Part shown: in pieces, positions 2,081-47,272 of the stretch
Position numbering within the stretch: position 1 is the first letter of the stretch
Layout: every line of letters starts with the position of its first letter
Source: Escherichia coli
Lineage (GTDB): Bacteria; Pseudomonadota; Gammaproteobacteria; Enterobacterales; Enterobacteriaceae
NCBI RefSeq assembly: GCF_009931435.1
Contig: NZ_CP043414.1
Length of the DNA stretch: 64,000 nucleotides
Direction: 5' to 3' (one strand)
Notes under the pieces: generated by a model
The model's database searches: none
The model's input: only the letters and a program-made list of their open reading frames with translations
Told to the model about the DNA's origin: nothing
Translations under genes and position numbers: made by a program

Positions 2081-4480
2081 ATGAAGCTAACCGATGCGGA
2101 TAATGCCGCCGATGGCATTTTTTTCCCCGCCCTTGAGCAAAATATGATGGGCGCGGTGTTAATTAACGAAAATGATGAAGTGATGTTTTTCAACCCCGCC
2201 GCAGAGAAGCTCTGGGGATACAAACGTGAAGAAGTCATTGGCAAAAACATTGATATGCTGATTCCGCGGGATTTGCGTCCTGCGCATCCTGAATATATCC
2301 GTCACAACCGTGAAGGCGGTAAAGCGCGCGTCGAGGGGATGAGTCGGGAGCTGCAGCTGGAGAAAAAAGACGGCAGTAAAATCTGGACCCGTTTTGCGCT
2401 ATCGAAAGTGAGCGCCGAGGGTAAAATTTATTACCTGGCGCTGGTACGTGATGCCAGCGTAGAAATGGCGCAAAAAGAACAGACCCGACAATTGATTATT
2501 GCTGTTGACCATCTCGACCGACCGGTGATTGTCCTCGATCCGGAACGCCATATTGTGCAGTGCAATCGCGCATTTACCGAAATGTTTGGTTACTGCATTA
2601 GCGAAGCCAGCGGTATGCAGCCCGATACACTCCTGAACATTCCAGAATTCCCTGCTGATAACCGCATTCGTTTACAACAGTTGCTATGGAAAACCGCCCG
2701 CGATCAGGACGAATTTCTGCTGTTGACGCGCACCGGTGAAAAAATCTGGATCAAAGCCTCTATCAGCCCGGTCTATGATGTGCTCGCACATCTGCAGAAC
2801 CTGGTAATGACTTTCTCGGATATCACCGAAGAACGGCAAATCCGCCAGCTTGAAGGCAATATTCTCGCCGCCATGTGCAGCAGCCCGCCATTTCATGAAA
2901 TGGGGGAAATCATTTGTCGTAACATCGAATCTGTTCTCAACGAATCGCATGTTTCGCTGTTCGCGCTGCGCAACGGGATGCCGATACACTGGGCGTCATC
3001 TTCGCACGGTACAGAAGTTCAAAATGCGCAAAGCTGGTCAGCGACCATTCGTCAGCGTGATGGCGCACCGGCGGGGATCCTGCAAATTAAAACCTCGTCA
3101 GGAGCAGAAACCAGCGCCTTTATCGAACGTGTGGCAGATATCAGCCAGCATATGGCCGCGCTGGCGCTGGAACAGGAAAAAAGCCGTCAGCATATTGAAC
3201 AACTCATCCAATTTGATCCGATGACCGGTCTGCCAAATCGCAATAACCTGCACAATTACCTCGATGACCTGGTCGACAAAGCCGTCTCTCCGGTGGTCTA
3301 TCTCATCGGTGTTGACCATATTCAGGATGTGATTGATAGCCTTGGCTATGCGTGGGCCGATCAGGCATTGCTGGAAGTGGTCAATCGCTTTCGTGAAAAA
3401 CTCAAACCGGATCAGTATCTCTGTCGTATCGAAGGTACGCAGTTTGTCCTCGTGAGCCTGGAAAACGACGTCAGTAACATTACCCAAATCGCCGATGAGC
3501 TACGGAATGTGGTCAGCAAGCCGATAATGATTGACGATAAACCATTCCCGCTCACCTTGAGCATTGGCATCAGCTACGACGTGGGTAAAAACCGCGATTA
3601 CCTGCTCTCCACTGCTCACAATGCAATGGATTTTATTCGCAAAAATGGCGGTAACGGCTGGCAGTTCTTCAGCCCGGTGATGAACGAAATGGTGAAAGAA
3701 CGATTGATATTAGGCGCAGCGCTGAAAGAAGCGATTAGCAATAACCAACTGAAACTGGTTTACCAACCACAAATCTTCGCAGAAACGGGTGAACTGTATG
3801 GTATCGAAGCCCTTGCTCGCTGGCACGATCCTCTGCATGGTCATGTGCCCCCTTCACGGTTTATTCCTCTCGCAGAAGAGATTGGCGAAATCGAAAATAT
3901 TGGGCGCTGGGTCATCGCGGAAGCTTGCCGTCAGTTAGCAGAATGGCGTAGCCAGAATATTCATATTCCAGCGTTATCCGTTAACTTGTCTGCGCTGCAC
4001 TTCCGCAGTAATCAGCTGCCTAATCAGGTGTCTGATGCAATGCAAGTCTGGGGCATTGACGGCCACCAGCTAACGGTGGAAATCACCGAAAGCATGATGA
4101 TGGAACACGATACGGAAATTTTTAAGCGCATCCAGATCCTGCGCGATATGGGCGTGGGTTTATCGGTAGATGATTTTGGCACGGGCTTTTCCGGATTATC
4201 CCGCTTAGTCAGTCTTCCGGTAACGGAAATCAAAATTGACAAAAGTTTTGTTGATCGTTGTCTGACGGAAAAACGCATCCTTGCCTTACTTGAAGCCATT
4301 ACCAGCATTGGGCAAAGCCTCAATTTAACCGTCGTGGCGGAAGGCGTCGAAACCAAAGAGCAATTTGAGATGCTACGTAAGATCCACTGTCGCGTTATTC
4401 AGGGATATTTCTTTTCCCGGCCCCTTCCCGCCGAAGAAATTCCAGGCTGGATGAGCAGCGTGTTACCGCTGAAAATCTGA
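2081..4480 (+). CDS. dosP: c-di-GMP phosphodiesterase DosP (PAS heme sensor + GGDEF-like + EAL)
   Basis: Track ORF 2057-4480; start placed at internal ATG 2081 (MKLTDADNA...) giving 799 aa; EAL region (QPQIFAETGELYGIEALARW) in translation. Confidence 0.92.
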   Translation: MKLTDADNAADGIFFPALEQNMMGAVLINENDEVMFFNPAAEKLWGYKREEVIGKNIDMLIPRDLRPAHPEYIRHNREGGKARVEGMSRELQLEKKDGSKIWTRFALSKVSAEGKIYYLALVRDASVEMAQKEQTRQLIIAVDHLDRPVIVLDPERHIVQCNRAFTEMFGYCISEASGMQPDTLLNIPEFPADNRIRLQQLLWKTARDQDEFLLLTRTGEKIWIKASISPVYDVLAHLQNLVMTFSDITEERQIRQLEGNILAAMCSSPPFHEMGEIICRNIESVLNESHVSLFALRNGMPIHWASSSHGTEVQNAQSWSATIRQRDGAPAGILQIKTSSGAETSAFIERVADISQHMAALALEQEKSRQHIEQLIQFDPMTGLPNRNNLHNYLDDLVDKAVSPVVYLIGVDHIQDVIDSLGYAWADQALLEVVNRFREKLKPDQYLCRIEGTQFVLVSLENDVSNITQIADELRNVVSKPIMIDDKPFPLTLSIGISYDVGKNRDYLLSTAHNAMDFIRKNGGNGWQFFSPVMNEMVKERLILGAALKEAISNNQLKLVYQPQIFAETGELYGIEALARWHDPLHGHVPPSRFIPLAEEIGEIENIGRWVIAEACRQLAEWRSQNIHIPALSVNLSALHFRSNQLPNQVSDAMQVWGIDGHQLTVEITESMMMEHDTEIFKRIQILRDMGVGLSVDDFGTGFSGLSRLVSLPVTEIKIDKSFVDRCLTEKRILALLEAITSIGQSLNLTVVAEGVETKEQFEMLRKIHCRVIQGYFFSRPLPAEEIPGWMSSVLPLKI

Positions 4481-8800: not shown

Positions 8801-9783
8801 CCCAACCCGTTCTGGACATTCAACAGCTGCATTTGAGTTTCTCCGGTTTTAACGGCGACGTTCACGCGCTCAACAATGTGTCATTGAAAATCAACCGCGG
8901 TGAAATTGTCGGTCTGGTGGGAGAATCCGGCTCGGGTAAATCAGTCACTGCAATGTTGATTATGCGTCTGTTACCGACGGGCAGTTATTGCGTACATCGG
9001 GGACATATTTCACTGCTGGGAGAAGATGCTCTTAACGCTCGGGAAAAACAGCTTCGTCAGTGGCGCGGCGCACGAGTGGCGATGATCTTTCAGGAACCGA
9101 TGACCGCCCTAAATCCGACACGTCGAATAGGTCTTCAGATGATGGACGTGATCCGCCATCATCAACCAATAAGTCGTCGGGAAGCCAGAGCTAAAGCGAT
9201 TGCCCTGCTGGAAGAGATGCAAATCCCGGATGCCGTGGAAGTTATGTCGCGCTATCCGTTTGAGCTTTCAGGTGGTATGCGCCAGCGGGTAATGATTGCG
9301 CTGGCATTCTCCTGCGAGCCGCAATTGATTATTGCCGACGAACCGACTACGGCGCTGGACGTCACGGTACAGTTGCAGGTACTGCGTCTGCTTAAACATA
9401 AAGCCCGCGCCAGTGGAACTGCGGTACTGTTCATCAGCCATGATATGGCCGTGGTGTCGCAACTGTGCGATAGCGTTTACGTGATGTATGCCGGAAGCGT
9501 GATCGAGAGCGGTATGACGGCAGACGTTATCCATCATCCCCGGCATCCGTATACCATTGGTTTGCTGCAATGCGCACCGGAACATGGAATACCACGCCAG
9601 CCATTACCCGCCATTCCAGGGACGGTACCAAACCTCACCCATTTGCCTGATGGCTGCGCTTTTCGCGATCGTTGCTATGCGGCAGGTACACAGTGTGAAA
9701 ACGTCCCGGCGCTGACAGCGTGTGGTGACAACAACCACCGCTGCGCCTGTTGGTATCCTCAGCAGGAGGTCATTAGTGTCTGA
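8797..9783 (+). CDS. ddpD: D,D-dipeptide ABC transporter ATP-binding protein
   Basis: 328 aa; Walker A GESGSGKS and signature LSGGMRQR. Confidence 0.9.
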   Translation: MTQPVLDIQQLHLSFSGFNGDVHALNNVSLKINRGEIVGLVGESGSGKSVTAMLIMRLLPTGSYCVHRGHISLLGEDALNAREKQLRQWRGARVAMIFQEPMTALNPTRRIGLQMMDVIRHHQPISRREARAKAIALLEEMQIPDAVEVMSRYPFELSGGMRQRVMIALAFSCEPQLIIADEPTTALDVTVQLQVLRLLKHKARASGTAVLFISHDMAVVSQLCDSVYVMYAGSVIESGMTADVIHHPRHPYTIGLLQCAPEHGIPRQPLPAIPGTVPNLTHLPDGCAFRDRCYAAGTQCENVPALTACGDNNHRCACWYPQQEVISV

Positions 9784-17504: not shown

Positions 17505-20500
17505 TTACGCCTTCTCGATGTTGACTAAGAACGCTTTATATTCCGGCGTTTGCGAGTTTGCATCACCGACATTCGGCGTCAGAGTGTTAGCGATATAACC
17601 TTTACGCGCGACACCCTCAAAGCCCCAGTGGATTGGAATACCCACCGTTTCAACCTGCTGACCGTTTACATTCAGTGGTTTCAGACGGCGCGTTACCACA
17701 GCCACCGCGCGGATAAAGCCACGCTTGCTGGAGACAGTGACACGATCGCCATTGGCAATGCCTTTCGCCGCCGCCAGCGTTTCGCTGATTTCCACAAACT
17801 GTTCCGGCTGAGCAATTGCGTTGAGCAACGCGTGCTTGGTCCAGGTGTGGAAGTGCTCGGTCAGACGGTAGGTCGTACCCACATACGGGAACTGCTCTTT
17901 TTTACCCATCCGCAGCGCGTCTTGTTCATACAGACGAACCACCGGGTTAGACACCACGTTCGGATGCAGCGGGTTAGTGCCCAGCGGCGTTTCAATTGGC
18001 TCGTAGTGTTCCGGGAACGGACCTTCCGCCATTTTGTTGATGGCAAACAGGCGTCCCATCCCTTCCGGCTGCATGATAAACGGCCCGGTTGGCGTACCCG
18101 GTGCGGCATTGCCGAAGTCCGGAATATCGTTACCCGTCCACTTGCTGCCGTTCCACTGGATCAGCATCCGTTTCGGATCCCAAGGTTTACCGTTGATATC
18201 CGCCGAAGCACGGTTGTACAGCACGCGACGGTTGAGCGGCCACGCCCAGGCCCATCCCAGCGTATTCCCCAGACCGGACGGGTCGGAGTTATCGCGGTTG
18301 GCCATCTGGTTGCCCTGCTCTGTCCAGCTACCGGTGTAGATCCAGCAAGAAGATGCGGTTGTACCGTCATCACGCAGATGCGCAAAGCTACTCAGCAACT
18401 GCCCTTTCTTCGCAATCAGTACGCCATTAGCGTCATAGAGATCTTCCAGCGCATAGCCGTTATTCTCTTTCGCCACTTCGTCAGACTGCGGTTCGTGCGG
18501 CTGCTTGTAGTTCCAGCTCATCTTCATCAGCGGTTCTACGCCTTTACCACCTTCGGCCTGGTACAGCTCGCGCAGATGATGGTAGATACCCGCCAGAATT
18601 TCGCCGTCATTACGCGCTTCGCCCGGCGCATCCTGACCTTTCCAGTGCCACTGCAACCAGCGACCGGAGTTAGCGATAGAACCATCTTCTTCGGCAAAGC
18701 AGGTCGAAGGCAGACGGAATACTTCAGTCTGAATAGACGCCGGATCGACATCGTTCGACTCGCCGTGGTTCTGCCAGAAGGTGGAGGTTTCAGTCACCAG
18801 CGGATCGATAACCACCATGTACTTCAGCTTGCTCAGGCAGCTCACCACTTTGTTTTTGTCCGGGAAGGACGCAACCGGGTTAAAGCCCTGGCAGAAATAA
18901 CCGGTGACTTTACCTTCATCCATCATGTTGAAATACTTGATGACGTCGTAGGTCTGGTCCCACTTGGGCAGCCAGTCGTAGCCCCAGTTGTTCTCTTTCT
19001 GCGCAGCATCGCCGTAGAAAGATTTCATCAGGCTAACGAAGAACTTCGGATAGTTGCTCCAGTAGTTCACCTGATCAGCCAGCGTCGCTTTCGGCGTGTT
19101 CGCTTCCAGATACGACTGCAAATCAACCTGTTTTTCTGACGGCAGCGTCAGATAACCCGGCAGGCTGGTAGAGAGCAGACCTAAGTCAGTCAGGCCCTGA
19201 ATGTTGGAGTGACCACGCAATGCGTTCACGCCGCCACCAGCCATACCCATGTTACCGAGCAGCAACTGGATCATCGCCATAGTACGGATGTTCTGCGCAC
19301 CCACGGTGTGTTGGGTCCAGCCCAGCGCGTACAGGAAGGTGGTTGTGCGATCCGGCGCGCTGGTGGAGGCCAGCACTTCACATACTTTCAGGAAGTCAGC
19401 TTTTGGCGTACCGCAGATGTTTTCTACTACGTCCGGCGTGTAACGGGAAACGTGCGCTTTCAGCAAGTTCCACACACAGCGCGGATGGGTCAGTGTTTCA
19501 TCGCGTTTCGCATAGCCATTTTCATCGAACTGATAGTTCCAGGACGACTTATCGTACTGACGTTTTTCAGCGTCATAACCGCTGAACAGGCCGTCTTCAA
19601 AAGTAAAATCATCACGCACCAGCAGGCTGGCGTTGGTGTAATGCTTAACGTATTCGGCGTTGATCTTGTTGTTTTCGATCAGGTAGCGCAAAACGCCAGA
19701 CAGGAACGTAATGTCCGTACCGGAACGAATAGGTGCGTAGATATCCGCCACAGAAGCGGTACGCGTAAAACGGGGATCGACAACGATCAAGGTTGCATCG
19801 TTGTTGTTTTTCGCTTCCATCGCCCAGCGAAAACCGACGGGATGCGCTTCAGCAGCGTTACCGCCCATCACCATTACGACGTTAGCGTTTTTGATATCCA
19901 CCCAGTGGTTGGTCATTGCACCGCGACCAAATGTTGGAGCAAGACTTGCTACCGTTGGTCCGTGTCAGACGCGCGCCTGGTTGTCTACCGCCAGCATCCC
20001 GAGGGAGCGGGCAAATTTCTGTGTCAGCATCCCGGTTTCGTTGCTGGCACCGGAAGCACACAGCATACCGGTAGAAAGCCAACGGTTTACCGTTACGCCC
20101 TGCTCATTCTTTTCAATAAAGTTAGCGTCACGGTCTGCCTTCATCAGCTTCGCAATGCGGGAGAATGCTTCTTCCCAGCTAATGCGCTGCCATTTGTCAG
20201 AACCTGGCGCACGATATTCCGGGTAGCGCAGACGGTTTTCGCTGTTGACGTAATCCAGCAATCCGGCCCCTTTCGGGCACAGCGCACCACGGCTTACCGG
20301 ATGATCCGGGTCACCTTCAATGTGATAAATCGCTTCTCTGGCGTTTTTCGCGCCATCACCCAGGCTATACATCAATAGCCCGCAACCTACGGAACAGTAT
20401 GTACAAGTGTTACGGATCTCTTTCGCGCGTAATAATTTGTAGTTTCGCGCCTGAGCCAGTGCTTGCTTCGGGGCAAAGCCCAATGCCGCGACTGTTGTTC

Positions 20501-20552
20501 CCGCCATACCGCCCGCGCAGATTTTAAAAAATTGTCTGCGACTGACGTCCAT
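17505..20552 (-). CDS. fdnG: Formate dehydrogenase-N alpha subunit (selenocysteine-containing molybdoenzyme)
   Basis: Two in-frame track ORFs (19965-20552 and 17505-19916) joined through an in-frame TGA at 19965-19967; Tat signal MDVSRRQFFKICAGGMAG; total 1015 codons including Sec. Confidence 0.93.
19917..19967 (-). promoter_or_regulatory. Selenocysteine UGA codon with immediately downstream SECIS-like hairpin region in fdnG mRNA
   Basis: In-frame TGA flanked by conserved ...VDNQARV-U-HGPTVASLA... context; palindromic agcaag/cttgct immediately 3' of UGA. Confidence 0.6.
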
Positions 20553-38069: not shown

Positions 38070-39280
38070 TTCATGATAGTTAAGGGGAGTGCTAACTTAA
38101 TATAAACACCCAGGGCAAGATTACGAAAGCCCGCTCCCCGCAAGGACTGACGCCAGATACTTTCTGTCCATGGTTGCTTTTCGCATCTTACGTCTTAACC
38201 CTGCTTGAATACCTCATCATTCGTCAAAATATTAATAGCGATGTGCCGTATCCCTGAAAATAATTCTGCTGCATTTCCTCTTCTTATTTTGCAGTCGTCT
38301 TCATTCATTACCACGTCCAGACGCCAGTGCAGCTTATTCTCCACGTGCCAGTGGTTTCGGATTGCTGTGGCGAACTTCTCTGCGGTTAAATCAGCAGAAC
38401 TGATATAATATCTGACCGTCATTTCTGGCTCTTTCTTTTGTTCTGCTATTATTGACCGAAAGGAGACTGCCACGCATAATTTCTTCAGACCTTTCCATTC
38501 AAACGTGAAATCAATAAGTTCATCAGGGACATCGCAAACAATGTGAAGACGGATTTCTTCTCTGCCGTGACTCTTTTCACTAATTGCGTAACTGTCATGC
38601 TCTGGATTATTTAATTCTTTCAGCGGAAATTTTTCCTCGAAGCCTTTATTTAGCCGCCCCTGGTTTCCTTTTACAGCGAATAAATAATCACCTCCCTGTT
38701 TTTGTATCTTCTCTGCAATATCTTTCTGGCAACCCATCGCATCAGTTGTGATGATTTTTCCTTTAATATCCAGCATGTTAAGAAGTTCTGGGATAGCTGT
38801 AATCTCATTGGATTTCTCATCCGTCTTGATCTGTCCGATGACCAGACTGTGCATTGTTGAGAACGCACTAATGACATGAATCGCTCCCCTGCGGCGACTC
38901 TTGTCATAAGAGTGCCGGAGCGTTTTTCCATCAATTGCAATGACGTCTTTATCATCTGAAGAATGGCAGTCACGCATCCAGTTAATAAAGCACTCATGAA
39001 ATTTTGCAGGACTGATACAGGATACAACTTTGGCAATGATATCGTGAACAGGAATACCATTTTCAAAATCACCATATCACTTCAAAAAATCGAGATGTGT
39101 TTCCCAAAAATTCGCTATATTTTCCTATCCTTCTGCACCAAAAATAACGGCACAAATAGCCAACAGTAGAATATCCGATAATTTATGCTCCACTTTCCAG
39201 GCTTGTCTGTAATCGGGGATAACAGAAATATGTTCCATCAATTTTTTAAGTACCATTTTGTTCTCCTTAATTATGTAAGG
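38070..39280 (-). mobile_element. ISAs1-family (H-repeat) insertion sequence, boundaries approximate
   Basis: Transposase-homologous sequence flanked by imperfect inverted repeats (about 38073-38087 atgatagttaagggg vs 39263-39277 ctccttaattatgta). Confidence 0.5.
38195..39238 (-). pseudogene. ISAs1-family transposase (H-repeat-associated protein) inactivated by two in-frame nonsense codons
   Basis: Hand translation from ATG 39238: [37 protein letters not shown]-stop-ENIANFWETHLDFLK-stop-YGDFENG..., continuing in frame into track ORF 38195-38977 ([11 protein letters not shown]...). Confidence 0.8.
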
Positions 39281-39562
39281 AGTATTTGATCATGTATAAG
39301 CAATAAAAAACAGCTTCAGGTAATGAGGAATATCTCAATTTTTAAACATAAAATGCGAATTGTTTAGTACAAAAAGTGTACTTCTGATGATCTTTCCCTG
39401 CCTATCAGCCCCCCTGCTGAACCCTGCACAATATCCAGTCCCTTGCGGGTCATGTCACCCTGCCGCGCCGCCGGTTTTCCGCTCATGGTTTATTCCTTTT
39501 CTTTTACCTTACATGTCCATACAAATAGTTACCTATACTGTCTTTGAATATTGCCCTACCAT

Positions 39563-40012
39563 TTAAAGCCCACCTATTTCTTGCGACAGAAAAGGGATTT
39601 CTTTTTTAATCCAATCTATCATTTCATTTTTTTCAAAACATACGTTAATGCCATTCACACTGCCACATTCACCAAAACCATCAAAATAAATTTCACATTT
39701 ATTATTTTTATTCGAAACAATGTCAACCCCCCATCTTATATCGTTATTCTCCTCCTTCCTGAAATACTTCATTTGCAATAAATCAATTATCTCACCAGCA
39801 TAAAAATCGCTAACCCCATTCACCACCACTTTATGTTTGTATATTCTCTTGAGACCTTCCTTGCTAAGCGGGGTTAAGGTGGTAACATATGCTGGAAGAT
39901 TAATTATTTCTATCGTTTTCACACTATCTATTCCACACAATTCATTCACTCGCCCCATCCCCAATACCGAAGCAGAAAATAGAGACAATAAAACCATCAA
40001 ATATTTCATCAT
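39563..40012 (-). CDS. Candidate Rhs immunity protein with N-terminal signal peptide
   Basis: 149 aa; starts 12 nt after Rhs stop; hydrophobic N-terminus MMKYLMVLLSLFSASVLG; AT-rich. Confidence 0.5.
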   Translation of the reverse strand: MMKYLMVLLSLFSASVLGMGRVNELCGIDSVKTIEIINLPAYVTTLTPLSKEGLKRIYKHKVVVNGVSDFYAGEIIDLLQMKYFRKEENNDIRWGVDIVSNKNNKCEIYFDGFGECGSVNGINVCFEKNEMIDWIKKEIPFLSQEIGGL

Positions 40013-40024
40013 AAAAAAATCTCA

Positions 40025-43000
40025 CTATTCTGGCGTGCCATTTATTGTTGCCGTCTGCGTTGGTGTATTCACACGATAATACACTCCATTATATGCTGTT
40101 CTGGTACACTCACCTAAAGTTTTCGCCGCATGCTGTTCAATTAAAGTGATAACTCTCGCCTCTTCTTTATTTTTATATTGTTCATCCGCACGTCTCACAA
40201 GCCCCATATAACCATCCTTATCAATAAGATATAAGTGCGCATGAGCAAACTCATGCCCCAAACCTAATGCAGGTGATTGTGATTTCGATTTTAAATCAGT
40301 TGAACAAAATAAAGCCGCCTTACCATTCCAATATATAGTCATTTTATCCGGGTCAAATCTAACGTCGGTTTCATCAATATACTCTATCTTTATGGTTTCT
40401 TCAGAGCTTGATAAAAAATCTATAGCTTCTTTCATTCGTGAATCTTGTTTTAAATACTCAACAGCCTGATTAAAATCACTTGGATCACCGTTAACATGGA
40501 ATTTTAAACCCAAAGAATCTATAAACCGAACAGGGTTTAATGGATATTTATACAGATTCCATTCACCTCTTAGCCCGATTGGATCCTGGGTGATATACCT
40601 CCCCTGTAGCGGGTCATAGTACCGGTTCCGGTTATAATACAGCCCCGACTCCTCATCGTGTTGCTGCCCTGGCAGACGGTACGGCTGGTGCATGTGATGC
40701 GAGTTTTCCTCATTCAGCAGGTTTCCCCACTCATCATACTCCCCGCTCCACGCCGTATTGCCGTCTTCGCTGATGAGCGCCAGCGGCAGGCCCCGGTGGT
40801 CGCAGTGATACAGATGCAGCGTGCGTGCCGGTGTGTATTCCGGCTCCACCTGTCTGGCCAGTTGCTCCACCGTCAGCCCGCACTGCGCAAGCCACGCCCG
40901 GCTTTCACTGCTCACGCGGTCTGCCCGGATTTCTTCCTCCAGCCTGTCCAGCATCCTCACAAGTTCTGCCGGGAACACCACACCGTGCCCGTCCTCACTC
41001 CCTTCCTGCTGCAGCTTCTCCGCCAGGCTCCGGCGCTGCGCTTTCTCCCGCTCGCCGTTCTCTGTTTCGATGCGGATGAGCGGCGTGAAGCTCCCAGGCT
41101 GGTAGACCGTCTGGATACGTGTGGTGTCGGTCTGTACCGTCGTCAGCCGGTCACCGTCCCACCCGTACCACGTTACCTCCGGTTTACGCGACAGCGACAT
41201 CCACCCCGTCAGGTCACGCTCCCGCCGCCATACCCGTTTCGCCATTCGCCGTCCCAGCGGGTCGTAGAGGTAGCGGCTCTCGACCAGTGGCTCGCCATGC
41301 TGTATCCGCGTGTAGAACACCAGGCGTGCTGGCTGTCGTAGTGGTAGTGGTGGGTCCGCTCGTCGTCCGTCCGTATCACACCCGCCGGGATGCGGTCCGT
41401 CTTCTCCGTCAGCCTGCCGTATTCATCGTGGCGGTAGACATAGTGCGCATCCTCCGCGATGCGGTTATCCGGCCACACTGTGAGTGTACTGTCCGGGTGC
41501 AGCTCCGGGTCCGGCAGCCGGTTGCCCGCCGGGTCCGTGGCATACGGGATGCGGATGTCCAGGTCCGGTGCGAGGGTGCGCACGCTCTCCAGCCTGCCCG
41601 TGGCACTGTAGCCGTATTCCCGCGTCTGTCGCGGGCCGCTGATGCGCACCAGGTCGCCGTTGTCATTCCACCCGTAGTCACGGTCATACACCAGGCTGTT
41701 CAGGTGCTGACTCTGTAACTGACCTGCGGGGGTGTATGTGCTGGTCAGTTCGTATGCGGAATTACTGCCTGCCATGCTGCCGAAGCTGCGCACCGTCTCA
41801 CGGTGCAGCCTGTCCCGCGTATACTCGACCAGCGGCGTCCCGCCCAGCTTCATTCCCGCCAGGTAACCGCTGCCATACGTCAGCCACTCCACCGGCGGCA
41901 GGCTGTCCGGCGTGACGCGGTTTGCCAGCCCCTGTTCGTTGTATGCCTGTTTCGTCTCATGCTGCCAGAGCAGTTCCTCCGTCTCCGGGTTATGCACCGT
42001 CTGGCGCTCGCCAGTCAGACGGCCCTTGTCGTCATAGCCATAGTGGACGGCAACACGGTGGCCTTCGCTCAGGTGGCTGATTTCTCTCAGCCAGCCGTGG
42101 CCATCATACTGCCACTGCTCTGCCGGTTCGCCGTTCACCGTGCGGTGCGTGATGCGGTCCGATTCGTCGTAGTGCCAGAGGGTGACAAGCCCCTCATCTT
42201 CACTCTGCGTGAGTTTTCCGGTCAGGTCATAGTGGTAACGTTGCGTCCGCCCGTCAAAGCCGCGCTGCTGTACCAGCCGGTCCAGCGCATCGTAGGTAAA
42301 CTCACTTCGGCTGCCGTTCTCGTTAGTCAGCGTGGTGACACGTCCGGCAGCATCATACTCCATACTGCGCGTCAGCCCGCCCTGCGTGGTACTGACCGCC
42401 TTTCCCCACGCATCGTACTGTGTCTCACTCCGGTTGCCATCCGGGGTGATGACGGCGGTCAGGTCGCCTGCGGCGTTGTACTCATACTGCGTTTCACGGC
42501 CCTGTGCGTCTTTCACCGAGGTTAACCGGCCACGGTTGTCATAGCGGCGGTAAAGGCTGATACCTTCCTCGCGGTGAACCGCCGTCATCTGGCCGAAGCG
42601 GTCGTATTCATAGCGGGTCTGGTAGCCCGAGCAGTCGGTGAAGGCCAGCAACTGCCCGTAGCGGCTCCAGGTCATCTGCCGGGTGCTGCCCGTCGCATCC
42701 GTTGTCGTCGCCGGTAACTCACTGTGCGGATTATCATAAGCATACCGGATGACGTCCCCGCTGCGCGATGTCTCCGTTACCAGCCTGTCCCGCTCATCAT
42801 ACGCCCGGCGGCTCTCCAGCCCGTCCGGGGACACCACCGCCGTTAACTGGTTCCCGTCGTTATAGTAAAATTTCGTCTCCCGCCCGTCCGGCGTGGTGAT
42901 ATCCGTGATATCGCCGGACACCACATTCAGGCCGTACTCTGTCCGCCGTCCCGCCGCGTCCGTCTGTGCCGTGAGCCTTCCTGCCGCGTCATACCCGCTG

Positions 43001-44277
43001 TGCGTGACGCTGCCGTCCGCCAGTTCTTTTTTCACCACCCGCTTCAGCCCGGCCCCGCCTTCTGTATGCAGCACCTCTCGCCGGTTCAGGCTGTCCGTGA
43101 TGGTGATGCGGTCCTGCTCATAAAGATAGCGATAGCTTAACCCTGCCGGGTTCAGCTGCTCCACCACCCGCCCGGTATCGTCGTAGCGGTAGCGCATCTC
43201 CGGCCTTCCCGCATAACGGTGCCCCACCATCCGGCCCGGGTGCTGCGCGTCATACGTGAAAGCGCGCACCTGCGTATTGCTGCGGTCATATACCGCCAGC
43301 AGTTCACCGGCTTCCGTATACGTGTAACGCGCCAGTGGCGCACCGGGCAGATTCTCCGGGTATGCCGGGTCGTGCATCAGCCACACCGCCGAAAGACGGA
43401 TGCCCCTGTCGGGGCCGTATTCCGTACCGGGCAGTGTGTCGGGGAACGCTGAGGCTGAGAGAGGGCGGGAACGGTCAGAAGAAGATAGCGAAGAGGTGCG
43501 GGCCTCTTCCGCACGCTGCGCCTGCGTGGTCAGCACCAGACGGAACTTCCGCCCGGCACCGTCCGTCACGCTGGTGATTTCCCCAGCCAGGTCACCGGCG
43601 GCCTCACGCCGGTACGTCAGCGTCCGCCCGAAGCGGTCCGCCAGCCCGGTAAGCACCCGGTACGGCGGCAGCGGCGCTGGCAGTACGTCCTCAGCACCCG
43701 GCACCCGCTCACTCCACCCCAGTATCCACCACGACCCCTGTGCGCTGTTGGTCGCCAGGTAAAGATGCGGGCTTAACCGGATATCCGGCGGCAGCGCCCC
43801 CCACAGTCGCGCCAGCGTGTGGCCGTCCGGCTGCGCTGCCTTACCACCGCGCACCAGCCACATTGACTCGCTGCGGCTGTACACCGCCTCCCCCGGCAGC
43901 AGCGGCTCAAAGTGAATGCTCCGCCCGCCGTTGTCGTTGAGTATCAGTGCGTCATCACGTAGCTGTAAGCGGATATCCGAAGGCGCTTTCCAGCCGGGGC
44001 CGAAAACGCCCACCGGGGCAGGCGTCCTCGTCCGGTAGCTGCTGTAGGTGCGGGAGAGAATGAACGGCAGCGGGCCGGGCAGCGCAAGGTCCGTCTCGCC
44101 GGGCAGCACCTTCGCCCCCAGCAGCGGATTTACCGGGTTGCCCGAAGTCATCCCGCCCGGACACACCGAGCACGCCACGCCGGTGGGCGCGCCAATTCTT
44201 ACACCTGCCGAACCCTGGACAATGGGACCGCCATACTGAGTCATATCTCCCTGACGCGCTGCTGGTTTTCCGCTCAT
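40025..44277 (-). CDS. Rhs-family polymorphic toxin (PAAR-like N-terminus, YD-repeat shell, variable C-terminal tip), interrupted by an apparent -1 frameshift near 41325
   Basis: Track ORFs 41209-44277 (1022 aa) and 40025-41320 (431 aa) overlap in different frames; YD repeats throughout; DPIGL core-end motif; C-terminal tip contains HEFAH. Confidence 0.85.
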
Positions 44278-44343: not shown

Positions 44344-46452
44344 TCAGTACTCTCTCATATCCGGCGTATCCTGCTTTTCATCAGGGGTCTTCGGTGGGGA
44401 TTTCGAGGCTGCACAGTTCCAGTTAATCAACAGTGAGTCACCATTAACCTGCTCCTTACCCTGCAAATGAATTTTTGTGCCGTTGAGAAAAATTTGTCCG
44501 TCCTTAGTCAGCACCAGCCTTGCCTTACCACAGCAGAGTTCCAGATGCTCACCGGCGGAGTAAATCGCGGTCTGCCCGGTATCATCCTTTTTCGTTTTAC
44601 CAACGGTGAAGGTAACGTTATTTCCGACTTTGACGTCATAACCCAGCCCGACCATCAACGATTTATGCAAACCGATCTGCGAGGACTGCATCAGGGCCAC
44701 CGAGGTGTTCATAATGCCACCTACCGTCGTCTGATACGCCACGCCCACAGTCAGCGCACGAACAAGTCCAATCGTTTCCACCTGAACAGAGCCCACTTTA
44801 ATGATCTGGTTACTGCCCACCGTCTCTATCTGGTTAACGCCCACCGTCTGTATCTGATTGTTGGTAACCGCAATCACCTGATTGTTGCCGATGGTCTCAG
44901 CATGGTTGTTTATCACATCCGTGGTGCGGTTATTCAGCACCTCGGTGTTCATGTTCTTCTGCGCGTGGATGTAGACCTGTTCTTTCCCTGTCGCATCGTC
45001 AAACTTCAGTTCATTAAACCCGCTGCCCTTATAGGTTTTCGAACGAATGGTCATCTGCGTCTTTGTTCCCGGCAGGCTGCCGGGGGTGCGGTTTTCCTGG
45101 TGGTAGGTACGCCCCATAATAATCGGCTGGTCCGGATCGCCGTTGAGGAAGTCCACAATGACCTCCTGACCCACACGCGGTATCGCCAGGTTACCAAACC
45201 CGGTGCCTGCCCACGCCTGTGCCACACGGATCCAGCATGAACTGTCCTGGTTTGACGGGTTATAACGGTCCCAGTTAAATTTCACCCGCACGCGGCCATG
45301 TTCATCACAGAAGATTTCTTCTCCTGCCGGTCCCGTCACGACGGCGCTCTGCGGGCCATCCACCAGCGGTTTCAGCAACGGCTGTGGCCGCCATGTTCTG
45401 TCTGCCGGTATTACCGCAAAGTGGTTATTCAGCGTGGTACCTGAACCCCTGCGTCCCGGCACCGCCTGCGGCTGCTCGCCGTGCAGTTCACTTGCCACCA
45501 CCTGCCATTCCCGGTTCAGGTTCGCCTGCGGATGCCCCGTCAGCGCAATTCGCCGTCCCGGCCATATCTCCGGAGAACGGCTTGTTCCGCGCGCCACTTC
45601 TGCGTTGTTTCGCCAGCCATCCATCTGCCAGCGGGCAAAGTTCTGCCCGTGGGCACCCTTGAAACGTCCGGGGTAGTCATACACTTCATACTGTGTGCGC
45701 TGGTAATCCTGGTACTGGCCTTCCTGATCAAAACGCCCTGCCCAGCCGGGTCGTTTAAAGGTGTAGTCCTTGGTCACCACGGAAGAAGGGCGGATTTGTG
45801 CGCTGTAGCGGAACTGGCTGATGCATAGGGTGCTCACCTCGGTACGGGTGTTCGGATTCCAGGGGATCTCAAAGGACTCCGGCAGATAACGCACGGTGTC
45901 GCACAGGACCAGGCTCTGGTCGGTACTTTTTTGCGCGTGCTCCTCATAAAAGAAGATGCCTTCCTCCGCCGCCATCCGGCACAGGAAATCGTAATCGGTT
46001 TCGCCGTACTGGACACAAAACTCACGGGAAGGATGCGGCTCGCTGAACAGCGGACTCCACTCGGTCACCCCGTTTTCTTTCAGGATCGTCGCGAGTATGC
46101 TTTCGATGTCCTCATTCTGGAAGATACGGAAGTTCTGGCGCAGCCCTGTGCGCCACAGCGGTGGGCACACCTTCATGCTGTACAGCATCTGGTTTTTGTC
46201 GTTCTCCCCCAGTTCAAACCAGGTCACCACACCTTTTACCCGGCGCTGTACGTCATCGCCCTGCCATACCGTCAGGTAGGCCATTTTGTCGAGGATCTGC
46301 GGAAATTCAAGGGAAAGAAACTGCTGACTGACCAGAGAAAGGTCGAGGGAAAAAAGTGAAGAGAGTGACTGGGTGAGATGAAAGGAAACCACCGCAAACG
46401 CGTCCGGTGGCAGGCCGTCCACTTCCAGCGTGAAACGTAATCCGGTTGACAT
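44344..46452 (-). CDS. vgrG: VgrG-type T6SS spike protein
   Basis: Track ORF 44344-46488; start at ATG 46452 (MSTGLRFTLEVDGLPPDAF...); gp27/gp5-like; Val-Gly repeats (VGVNQIETVGSNQIIKVGSVQVETIG). Confidence 0.9.
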   Translation of the reverse strand: MSTGLRFTLEVDGLPPDAFAVVSFHLTQSLSSLFSLDLSLVSQQFLSLEFPQILDKMAYLTVWQGDDVQRRVKGVVTWFELGENDKNQMLYSMKVCPPLWRTGLRQNFRIFQNEDIESILATILKENGVTEWSPLFSEPHPSREFCVQYGETDYDFLCRMAAEEGIFFYEEHAQKSTDQSLVLCDTVRYLPESFEIPWNPNTRTEVSTLCISQFRYSAQIRPSSVVTKDYTFKRPGWAGRFDQEGQYQDYQRTQYEVYDYPGRFKGAHGQNFARWQMDGWRNNAEVARGTSRSPEIWPGRRIALTGHPQANLNREWQVVASELHGEQPQAVPGRRGSGTTLNNHFAVIPADRTWRPQPLLKPLVDGPQSAVVTGPAGEEIFCDEHGRVRVKFNWDRYNPSNQDSSCWIRVAQAWAGTGFGNLAIPRVGQEVIVDFLNGDPDQPIIMGRTYHQENRTPGSLPGTKTQMTIRSKTYKGSGFNELKFDDATGKEQVYIHAQKNMNTEVLNNRTTDVINNHAETIGNNQVIAVTNNQIQTVGVNQIETVGSNQIIKVGSVQVETIGLVRALTVGVAYQTTVGGIMNTSVALMQSSQIGLHKSLMVGLGYDVKVGNNVTFTVGKTKKDDTGQTAIYSAGEHLELCCGKARLVLTKDGQIFLNGTKIHLQGKEQVNGDSLLINWNCAASKSPPKTPDEKQDTPDMREY

Positions 46453-47272
46453 AGCAACCTCCGTGAAAATGAATAATAATCCGCACATATTGCATGTACA
46501 ACATGTCGGACGGATGAGATAAGCGAGTCGACATCTGGCGTTACCGGGGAATATCAGAAAAATGTCATGGTTATGTGATGATTTAGTCTGGGATTTTACT
46601 TCAGAGAAACGGGTGTCTGTTTAGTCAACAAAATAATCACAAACGCAACGGATGGGTTCTCGACGTTATTCACGACAGGCTCGTACATTACAGCGAGTAA
46701 TAAAAAACCTGATATGCAAAGTCAAACCAATATTCATAATGTCTTTTTATTCACAAAAATAAATAATTCAATAACAATCATTGAAATGAATGATGGTTTG
46801 TATAAGGAATATACGCTACCGCCCCACCCTGATAACATGATCTGCACATTGCCATCTTAACGTCGTTAAACACTGGCTTAATAGTGGATATTTCAAATTA
46901 GGAATTTATTAAATTCACCTGATGAATATCATAAGCAAATAGCATAGAAAATAATGACAACTCCCCCGAGGGGACCATTTCCAAAGCACTGCAACACCAC
47001 CTGGTGCCCGGATGATCTTGCTTCAGTGGTAAGAGTACCTGATTCATTGTTCCCAAAATGGTGTTTTCCCCTGCCCCTCCAATAACGTGCAGCTCTCACG
47101 TGATAATCTATTGATTAGGTTATATTAAGAATCAATATTTGAAATACATCCATTTTCTTGAATAAATCAACATATTTATTTATCAATTGCTGTTTTAGCT
47201 CTGACTCATCAAACTCTCCATATTTTTCCTACAGAAAATCGCGAATAAATACAGAGAACGCCATTTATCCTT

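Follow-up and report, generated by a model that had tools for sequence, protein, structure and literature searches.

The rhs gene carried on the minus strand at positions 40025..44277 of the window (the stretch of 64,000 nucleotides of Escherichia coli contig NZ_CP043414.1, assembly GCF_009931435.1, that was analysed here) is, as written, a pseudogene: it lacks a single C, its coding sequence is divided over two overlapping frames, and among the collections searched the deletion is private to this one assembly. At 4253 nt, the gene falls one base short of the intact allele of 4254 nt. The base concerned is one C of the CAC-CGC encoding His984 and Arg985, which reads CAC-GC in the window, and it is missing from between positions 41326 and 41325 (minus strand). 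If the base call is right, loss of this C would be a very recent loss-of-function mutation, and we give the lesion an even chance of being such an inactivating event.

The first of the two frames, ORF-A (41209..44277, minus strand), comprises 1022 codons; according to the ORF list and its translations, 984 of these encode native residues, down to ...HHYHYDSQH, and the last 38 are read out of frame to a stop at 41209-41211. Its native part holds the DUF6531 N-terminal region and 12 RHS/YD repeat stretches (Pfam PF05593). The second, ORF-B (40025..41320, minus strand; 431 codons from a GTG at 41320), continues the native frame: it carries rhs residues 985-1417 through the last YD repeats, the end of the RHS core with its DPIGL motif (40571-40585) and the toxin tip to the stop at 40025-40027, and matches PF03527. 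The translation of this -1 frame confirms the initial annotation, which had described the overlapping frame as a conserved Rhs core stretch leading to the toxin tip. Both frames are open together for 214 nt (41209-41422). In each global alignment of the gene with three intact E. coli rhs genes, a 1-nt gap falls at ~41326, and against the 4254-nt rhs of strain 2014C-3075 this gap is the only indel. The deletion of a single C that had been proposed somewhere in 41318-41335 was thus called correctly to the base, as was the guess that a conserved sequence had lost one C there: the closest relative, E. coli CP057959.1, reads CAGCACCGCCTGGTG at the spot where the window reads CAGCACGCCTGGTG.

Re-inserting the C in silico yields a frame of 1417 codons, close to the 1410 or so that had been anticipated, whose product is identical to a protein on record in four assemblies (QMP78688.1, QMS26455.1, HDV3957984.1 and HDV3967613.1). 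Against NF041261, the NCBIfam equivalog model RHS_core (cut-off, 2000 bits), this repaired product reaches 2752 bits over model positions 1-1261; it also has TIGR03696 spanning residues 1181-1258 with DPIGL at residue 1232. The NF041261 match of the window copy as written is divided over two frames; an Rhs protein requires one uninterrupted reading frame, and that of the window copy is broken by the frameshift after codon 984. On sequence comparison with thousands of in-frame homologues, the lesion can be taken as specific and a chance feature as excluded.

The gene belongs to a type VI secretion effector module of standard VgrG-Rhs-immunity make-up, at an rhsE-type chromosomal site. On the minus strand, the order is vgrG, rhs, the immunity ORF, a remnant of a second rhs gene and a degenerate ISAs1 transposase gene. 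The T6SS spike gene vgrG (44344..46488, minus strand), recognized by the Pfam domains Phage_GPD, Phage_base_V and Gp5_trimer_C of its product, encodes 702 aa from an ATG at 46452 in an ORF open from 46488, and over 702/702 aa this protein shares 99% identity with the VgrG annotated in E. coli 2013C-4282. Its end lies 66 nt ahead of rhs, and 12 nt separate the rhs stop from the cognate immunity gene (39563..40012, minus strand), which encodes 149 aa and, as had been noted at the outset, is intact. The N-terminal remnant of the second rhs gene (39364..39486, minus strand) consists of 40 codons with their own ribosome-binding site and is cut off by an ISAs1-family (H-repeat) element, the transposase gene of which (38126..39256, minus strand) has a premature stop after 43 codons. 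Three relatives (L020, L022 and L038) have the gene divided in the same way, into 43 + 260 aa, so that this stop, in contrast to the rhs deletion, is an inherited one. Where the window has the 40-codon remnant after the immunity gene, strain SCU-102 carries a second rhs pseudogene that is complete. The module is flanked by yncH, yncG and ansP on one side and by yddH, nhoA, yddE and narZYWV on the other; the site between yncH and yddH/nhoA is the rhsE site of E. coli K-12 (b1455-b1461; PMC3032704). No T6SS core genes were found within the window.

The deletion was sought in other genomes with a 70-nt query spanning the site, an ungapped match being required, against a database of 5,426 complete E. 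coli genomes. Matches were obtained at 9127 Rhs places in 3703 genomes, none of them with the deletion, and even the best place shows a 1-nt gap. The deletion-bearing 24-mer had no match in GTDB representative genomes or JGI metagenomes; the intact 25-mer used as a control was found. Exact look-up of the truncated products (the 1022-aa ORF, ORF-B from three starts and a contig-end form) in a collection of 15 billion proteins returned none of them; the contig-end form in GCA_002207125.1, considered as a candidate truncated product, proved to be the intact version WP_088542345.1.

Close relatives were reached through a look-up of the immunity protein, which led to E. coli CP057959.1 (GCA_013900085.1), with the same gene order. 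Over 12 kb, the window differs from this genome by 14 substitutions (6 in vgrG and 8 in ISAs1) and by one gap, the missing C. Apart from the C, rhs of the window is identical at 4253/4253 positions to that of CP057959.1 and to those of the draft assemblies GCA_031233815.1 and GCA_031233855.1. The C is likewise present in the same-locus relatives L035, L038, L040 and L022 and in the contig-end protein of L020; every relative examined at the locus has it, and the comparison with intact Rhs genes of related strains that had been suggested shows all of these in frame. Two relatives nevertheless carry an inactivating lesion elsewhere in the same gene: in L037 (13717-17951) and L038 (13716-17965), rhs has a 4-bp deletion at gene position 432, with a stop at codon 167. 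This allele occurs in at least two assemblies (GCA_021109565.1 and scaffold ERZ28584597), one of which is otherwise 189 substitutions away. Relatives L006 and L009, with no recorded gene between vgrG and the immunity gene, were considered as further rhs pseudogenes and rejected, their rhs frames being intact.

In its housekeeping flanks, the window shares no more than ~96.4% identity with the majority of complete E. coli genomes and 98.1% with 2013C-4282, which places the strain in a divergent lineage of the species; at 99.9%, GenBank assemblies such as CP057959.1, outside the RefSeq complete set searched, come closest. Relative to 2013C-4282, the window is without a ~6.8-kb island between ddpF and osmC (~10700), encoding a LysR regulator, a CoA-transferase, a thiolase, a GntP permease and a hydroxybutyrate dehydrogenase, and without a CatB-related acetyltransferase gene beside patD (~57330-57420). 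Two adjacent paralogues of ~417 aa with ~27% mutual identity lie at 23189-25760 (plus strand) between an ompC-like gene and narU, one of them annotated as a leucine-rich-repeat protein in 2013C-4282. fdnG (17505-20552, minus strand) shows as two ORFs of 803 aa and 195 aa, and was considered as a pseudogene and rejected, its protein aligning over 1-1015 in one frame; what divides it is one in-frame TGA, codon 196 (19965-19967), known as the selenocysteine codon of formate dehydrogenase-N.

Several observations argue for a real mutation in rhs. The gap is a single 1-nt event in a clean assembly: ~55 other genes of the window align full-length and in one frame to proteins of 2013C-4282, and no further indel is seen against the nearest relatives over 46 kb, from which it follows that the assembly is not indel-noisy. 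Inactivating indels in the same gene of relatives (the 4-bp deletion) point in the same direction, and frameshifted rhs genes are known from other strains, with two of the seven rhs genes of E. coli W frameshifted and K-12 rhsE a pseudogene (PMC3032704). Against this reading stand the restriction of the deletion to one assembly, which is how an error would look, and the finding that all private alleles of the window lie in multicopy elements, where polishing is least reliable. The 20.5 kb from 26310 to 46878 hold four of these: ISAs1 has two, vgrG one, and the fourth is the missing C of rhs. In vgrG, at 45109-45809, 6 substitutions relative to CP057959.1 are clustered within DNA that is otherwise identical. 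This patch and the confinement of the private alleles to repeats suggest that paralogues have undergone gene conversion or that the consensus is noisy in repeats.

Alternatively, the genome may have CACCGCCTGG and an intact 1417-codon rhs, one C having been dropped from the consensus by an assembly or base-calling artefact, a possibility that we place a little short of even. The loss could have come about through ambiguous short-read polishing in the multicopy Rhs core, or through a long-read error near a Dcm-methylated CCTGG that survived polishing. The lesion is a singleton in a background that is base-for-base identical to three intact alleles, and it falls where the Rhs core is best conserved, the 400-nt stretch around it being present in a median of 3 copies per E. 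coli genome at 95-99% identity; the differences private to the window over the 20.5 kb all fall in ISAs1, Rhs and VgrG repeats. The window, moreover, runs unbroken through these repeats, which suggests a long-read assembly. A Dcm motif (CCTGG, 41320..41324), which bears only on an error in sequencing, lies 2 nt downstream of the deleted C, and base modifications are known to cause errors in nanopore reads (PMC11610603). The same source, however, reports that CCWGG is handled well by current basecallers (PMC11610603), none of the 153 other Dcm sites in the window has an indel, and an artefact is also at odds with the lack of any other indel over 46 kb and with the genuine frameshifts in this gene of relatives. 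As for the short C run that had been suspected as a site of error, the site offers only CC, not a classical homopolymer of the kind usually miscalled, although it does lie close to the Dcm site and inside a multicopy repeat.

A rough rate argument gives ~0.1 for either event, assuming on the one side ~2.5e-4 substitutions/site to the nearest relatives and ~1 indel per 10 substitutions, and on the other between a few and some tens of errors left in the consensus, mostly within repeats. It is because this estimate is similar for both that we weigh a real mutation and an artefact as we do, and the sequence alone cannot separate them. With a real mutation the genome would read CACGCCTGG at this rhs copy, and with an artefact CACCGCCTGG.

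It is improbable, in our estimate, that the split gene works in two pieces, with ORF-B internally initiated at GTG 41320, ATG 41245 or ATG 41200 and its product assembling with the ORF-A fragment, or with ORF-B acting as an orphan cassette of toxin and immunity, available for recombination into other rhs genes. Start codons are indeed present in the ORF-B frame, and orphan cassettes of core end and toxin tip downstream of rhs are a known feature of E. coli (PMC3032704). GTG 41320, however, is without a Shine-Dalgarno sequence, the other starts offer no more than weak G-rich stretches, no homologue shows such an arrangement, and a role in recombination would be a by-product of homology, not a function of the lesion. 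We see a similarly slim chance that the break is real and is tolerated through trace amounts of toxin, made by rare spontaneous -1 shifts or internal initiation, or through persistence of ORF-B and the immunity gene as an orphan cassette; if so, it would offer a snapshot of the first step in the origin of an orphan Rhs toxin module.

Least credible of all is a programmed -1 ribosomal frameshift or transcriptional slippage that rebuilds the full-length Rhs protein: the two frames share 214 nt without a stop, and the native sequence would result if a -1 shift took place precisely at His984, but a zero-frame scan of this overlap found no slippery heptamer (X XXY YYZ) and no homopolymer of five bases or longer, the predicted fold of the 131 nt downstream is no more stable than those of shuffled sequences (MFE -45.3 against a shuffle mean of -48.5 kcal/mol, z = +0.86, with 162/200 shuffles folding as well), the deletion is absent from all 9127 Rhs places, and no recoding signal could have evolved where every homologue, identical alleles included, is in frame. 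The site, a CC dinucleotide, also has no homopolymer or tandem tract of the kind expected of a phase-variable contingency locus. Neither a programmed frameshift nor a phase-variable switch is supported; among the three options entertained in the initial annotation, a recent pseudogene and a sequencing or assembly error survive, and frameshift-dependent expression does not. The case is one of an ordinary frameshifted rhs gene or of a consensus error, both of an already known kind, with no special decoding mechanism.

The part of the protein that the frameshift separates from the rest ends in a C-terminal toxin domain of 159 aa (40028..40504, minus strand) with an HEFAH motif at 40241-40255. GC content is 64% in the core, 37% in the toxin tip and 34% in the immunity gene. 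Direct searches of the tip against Pfam, NCBIfam and PDB sequences gave nothing significant, the hit to PF14891 being sub-threshold (E 0.032; 15 bits against a cut-off of 25), and the tip was placed only via its relatives. An exhaustive HMMER search collected 591 of these; in an alignment of 49 sequences, H84, E85, H88, E115 and E123 are invariant, and 42 of the 49 aligned relatives match PF14891 (Peptidase_M91), with a best E of 1.5e-8. The AlphaFold (AF2) model of the domain is confident (pLDDT 94.7), but no solved structure comes close to it: its fold matches in the PDB are weak (E >= 0.067), if mostly to zinc peptidases. The HExxH and a conserved downstream acidic ligand are both present, and the tip fits a putative metallopeptidase domain of the Peptidase_M91 or HopH1-NleD-like type. 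The exact sequence of the immunity protein is found on 717 contigs, and in relatives its gene always follows this toxin tip. The N-terminus of the immunity protein is hydrophobic and resembles a signal peptide, which by analogy suggests a periplasmic target for the toxin.

From its native start, the window copy would yield a 1022-aa protein without the last ~430 residues, which include the final YD repeats closing the Rhs shell, the end of the RHS core, where the DPxGL motif for self-cleavage lies, and the metallopeptidase-like toxin with its HExxH. Judging by solved Rhs and Tc-toxin shells, such a fragment would neither enclose nor release a toxin. By analogy with the Rhs structures, no toxin would then be encapsulated or loaded on VgrG, and the ORF-B frame, with neither a Shine-Dalgarno sequence nor the VgrG-docking N-terminus, is not expected to give a deliverable toxin; on these grounds we infer that, if the base call is right, the window rhs has lost its function. 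The intact immunity gene would still protect against kin with a working allele. If the deletion is real, a T6SS toxin has been lost from the strain very recently and the immunity to it retained, a textbook step in polymorphic toxin turnover whose only use would be to mark the strain or to provide a dated case of effector loss. If it is an error, it illustrates how residual consensus errors persist in multicopy elements, Rhs cores among them, of assemblies that are otherwise clean, and the gene should be annotated as an intact RHS core protein of 1417 aa.

Among known systems, the nearest are the RHS element core proteins of the RhsA-E class (NF041261), represented by QMP78688.1 and QMS26455.1, whose DNA is identical to that of the window over 4253 positions. 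This allele occupies the same locus (yncH-vgrG-rhs-immunity-ISAs1-yddH) and has the same order of DUF6531, YD repeats, RHS core, DPIGL and variable tip; the window differs in being one C short, which leaves a 1022-aa ORF and a -1 frame. The putative toxin has its counterparts in the Tox-HopH1/NleD-like (Peptidase_M91) metallopeptidase tips known in polymorphic toxins (Zhang et al. 2012, PMC3482391), which likewise combine an HExxH with a downstream invariant Glu at the C-terminus of an RHS protein; the window domain differs in falling below the Pfam threshold (15 vs 25 bits), and its activity is predicted. VgrG2b-C of Pseudomonas aeruginosa, reported to be a periplasm-acting T6SS metallopeptidase (PMC6899460), would be a functional parallel, given that the signal-peptide-like N-terminus of the window immunity protein suggests a periplasmic target. 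With respect to the lesion itself, the window resembles rhsW2 and rhsW4 of E. coli W and rhsE of K-12, the last at the same chromosomal site, where point lesions inactivate rhs and neighbouring elements persist (PMC3032704). Those lesions, however, are fixed in well-verified genomes, whereas the putative lesion of the window is private to one assembly and unaccompanied by further decay. The 4-bp-deletion allele of the relatives is also comparable: it is a frameshift of the same gene at the same locus but at another position (nt 432), and it is found in more than one assembly and is clearly heritable, in contrast to the single-assembly lesion of the window.
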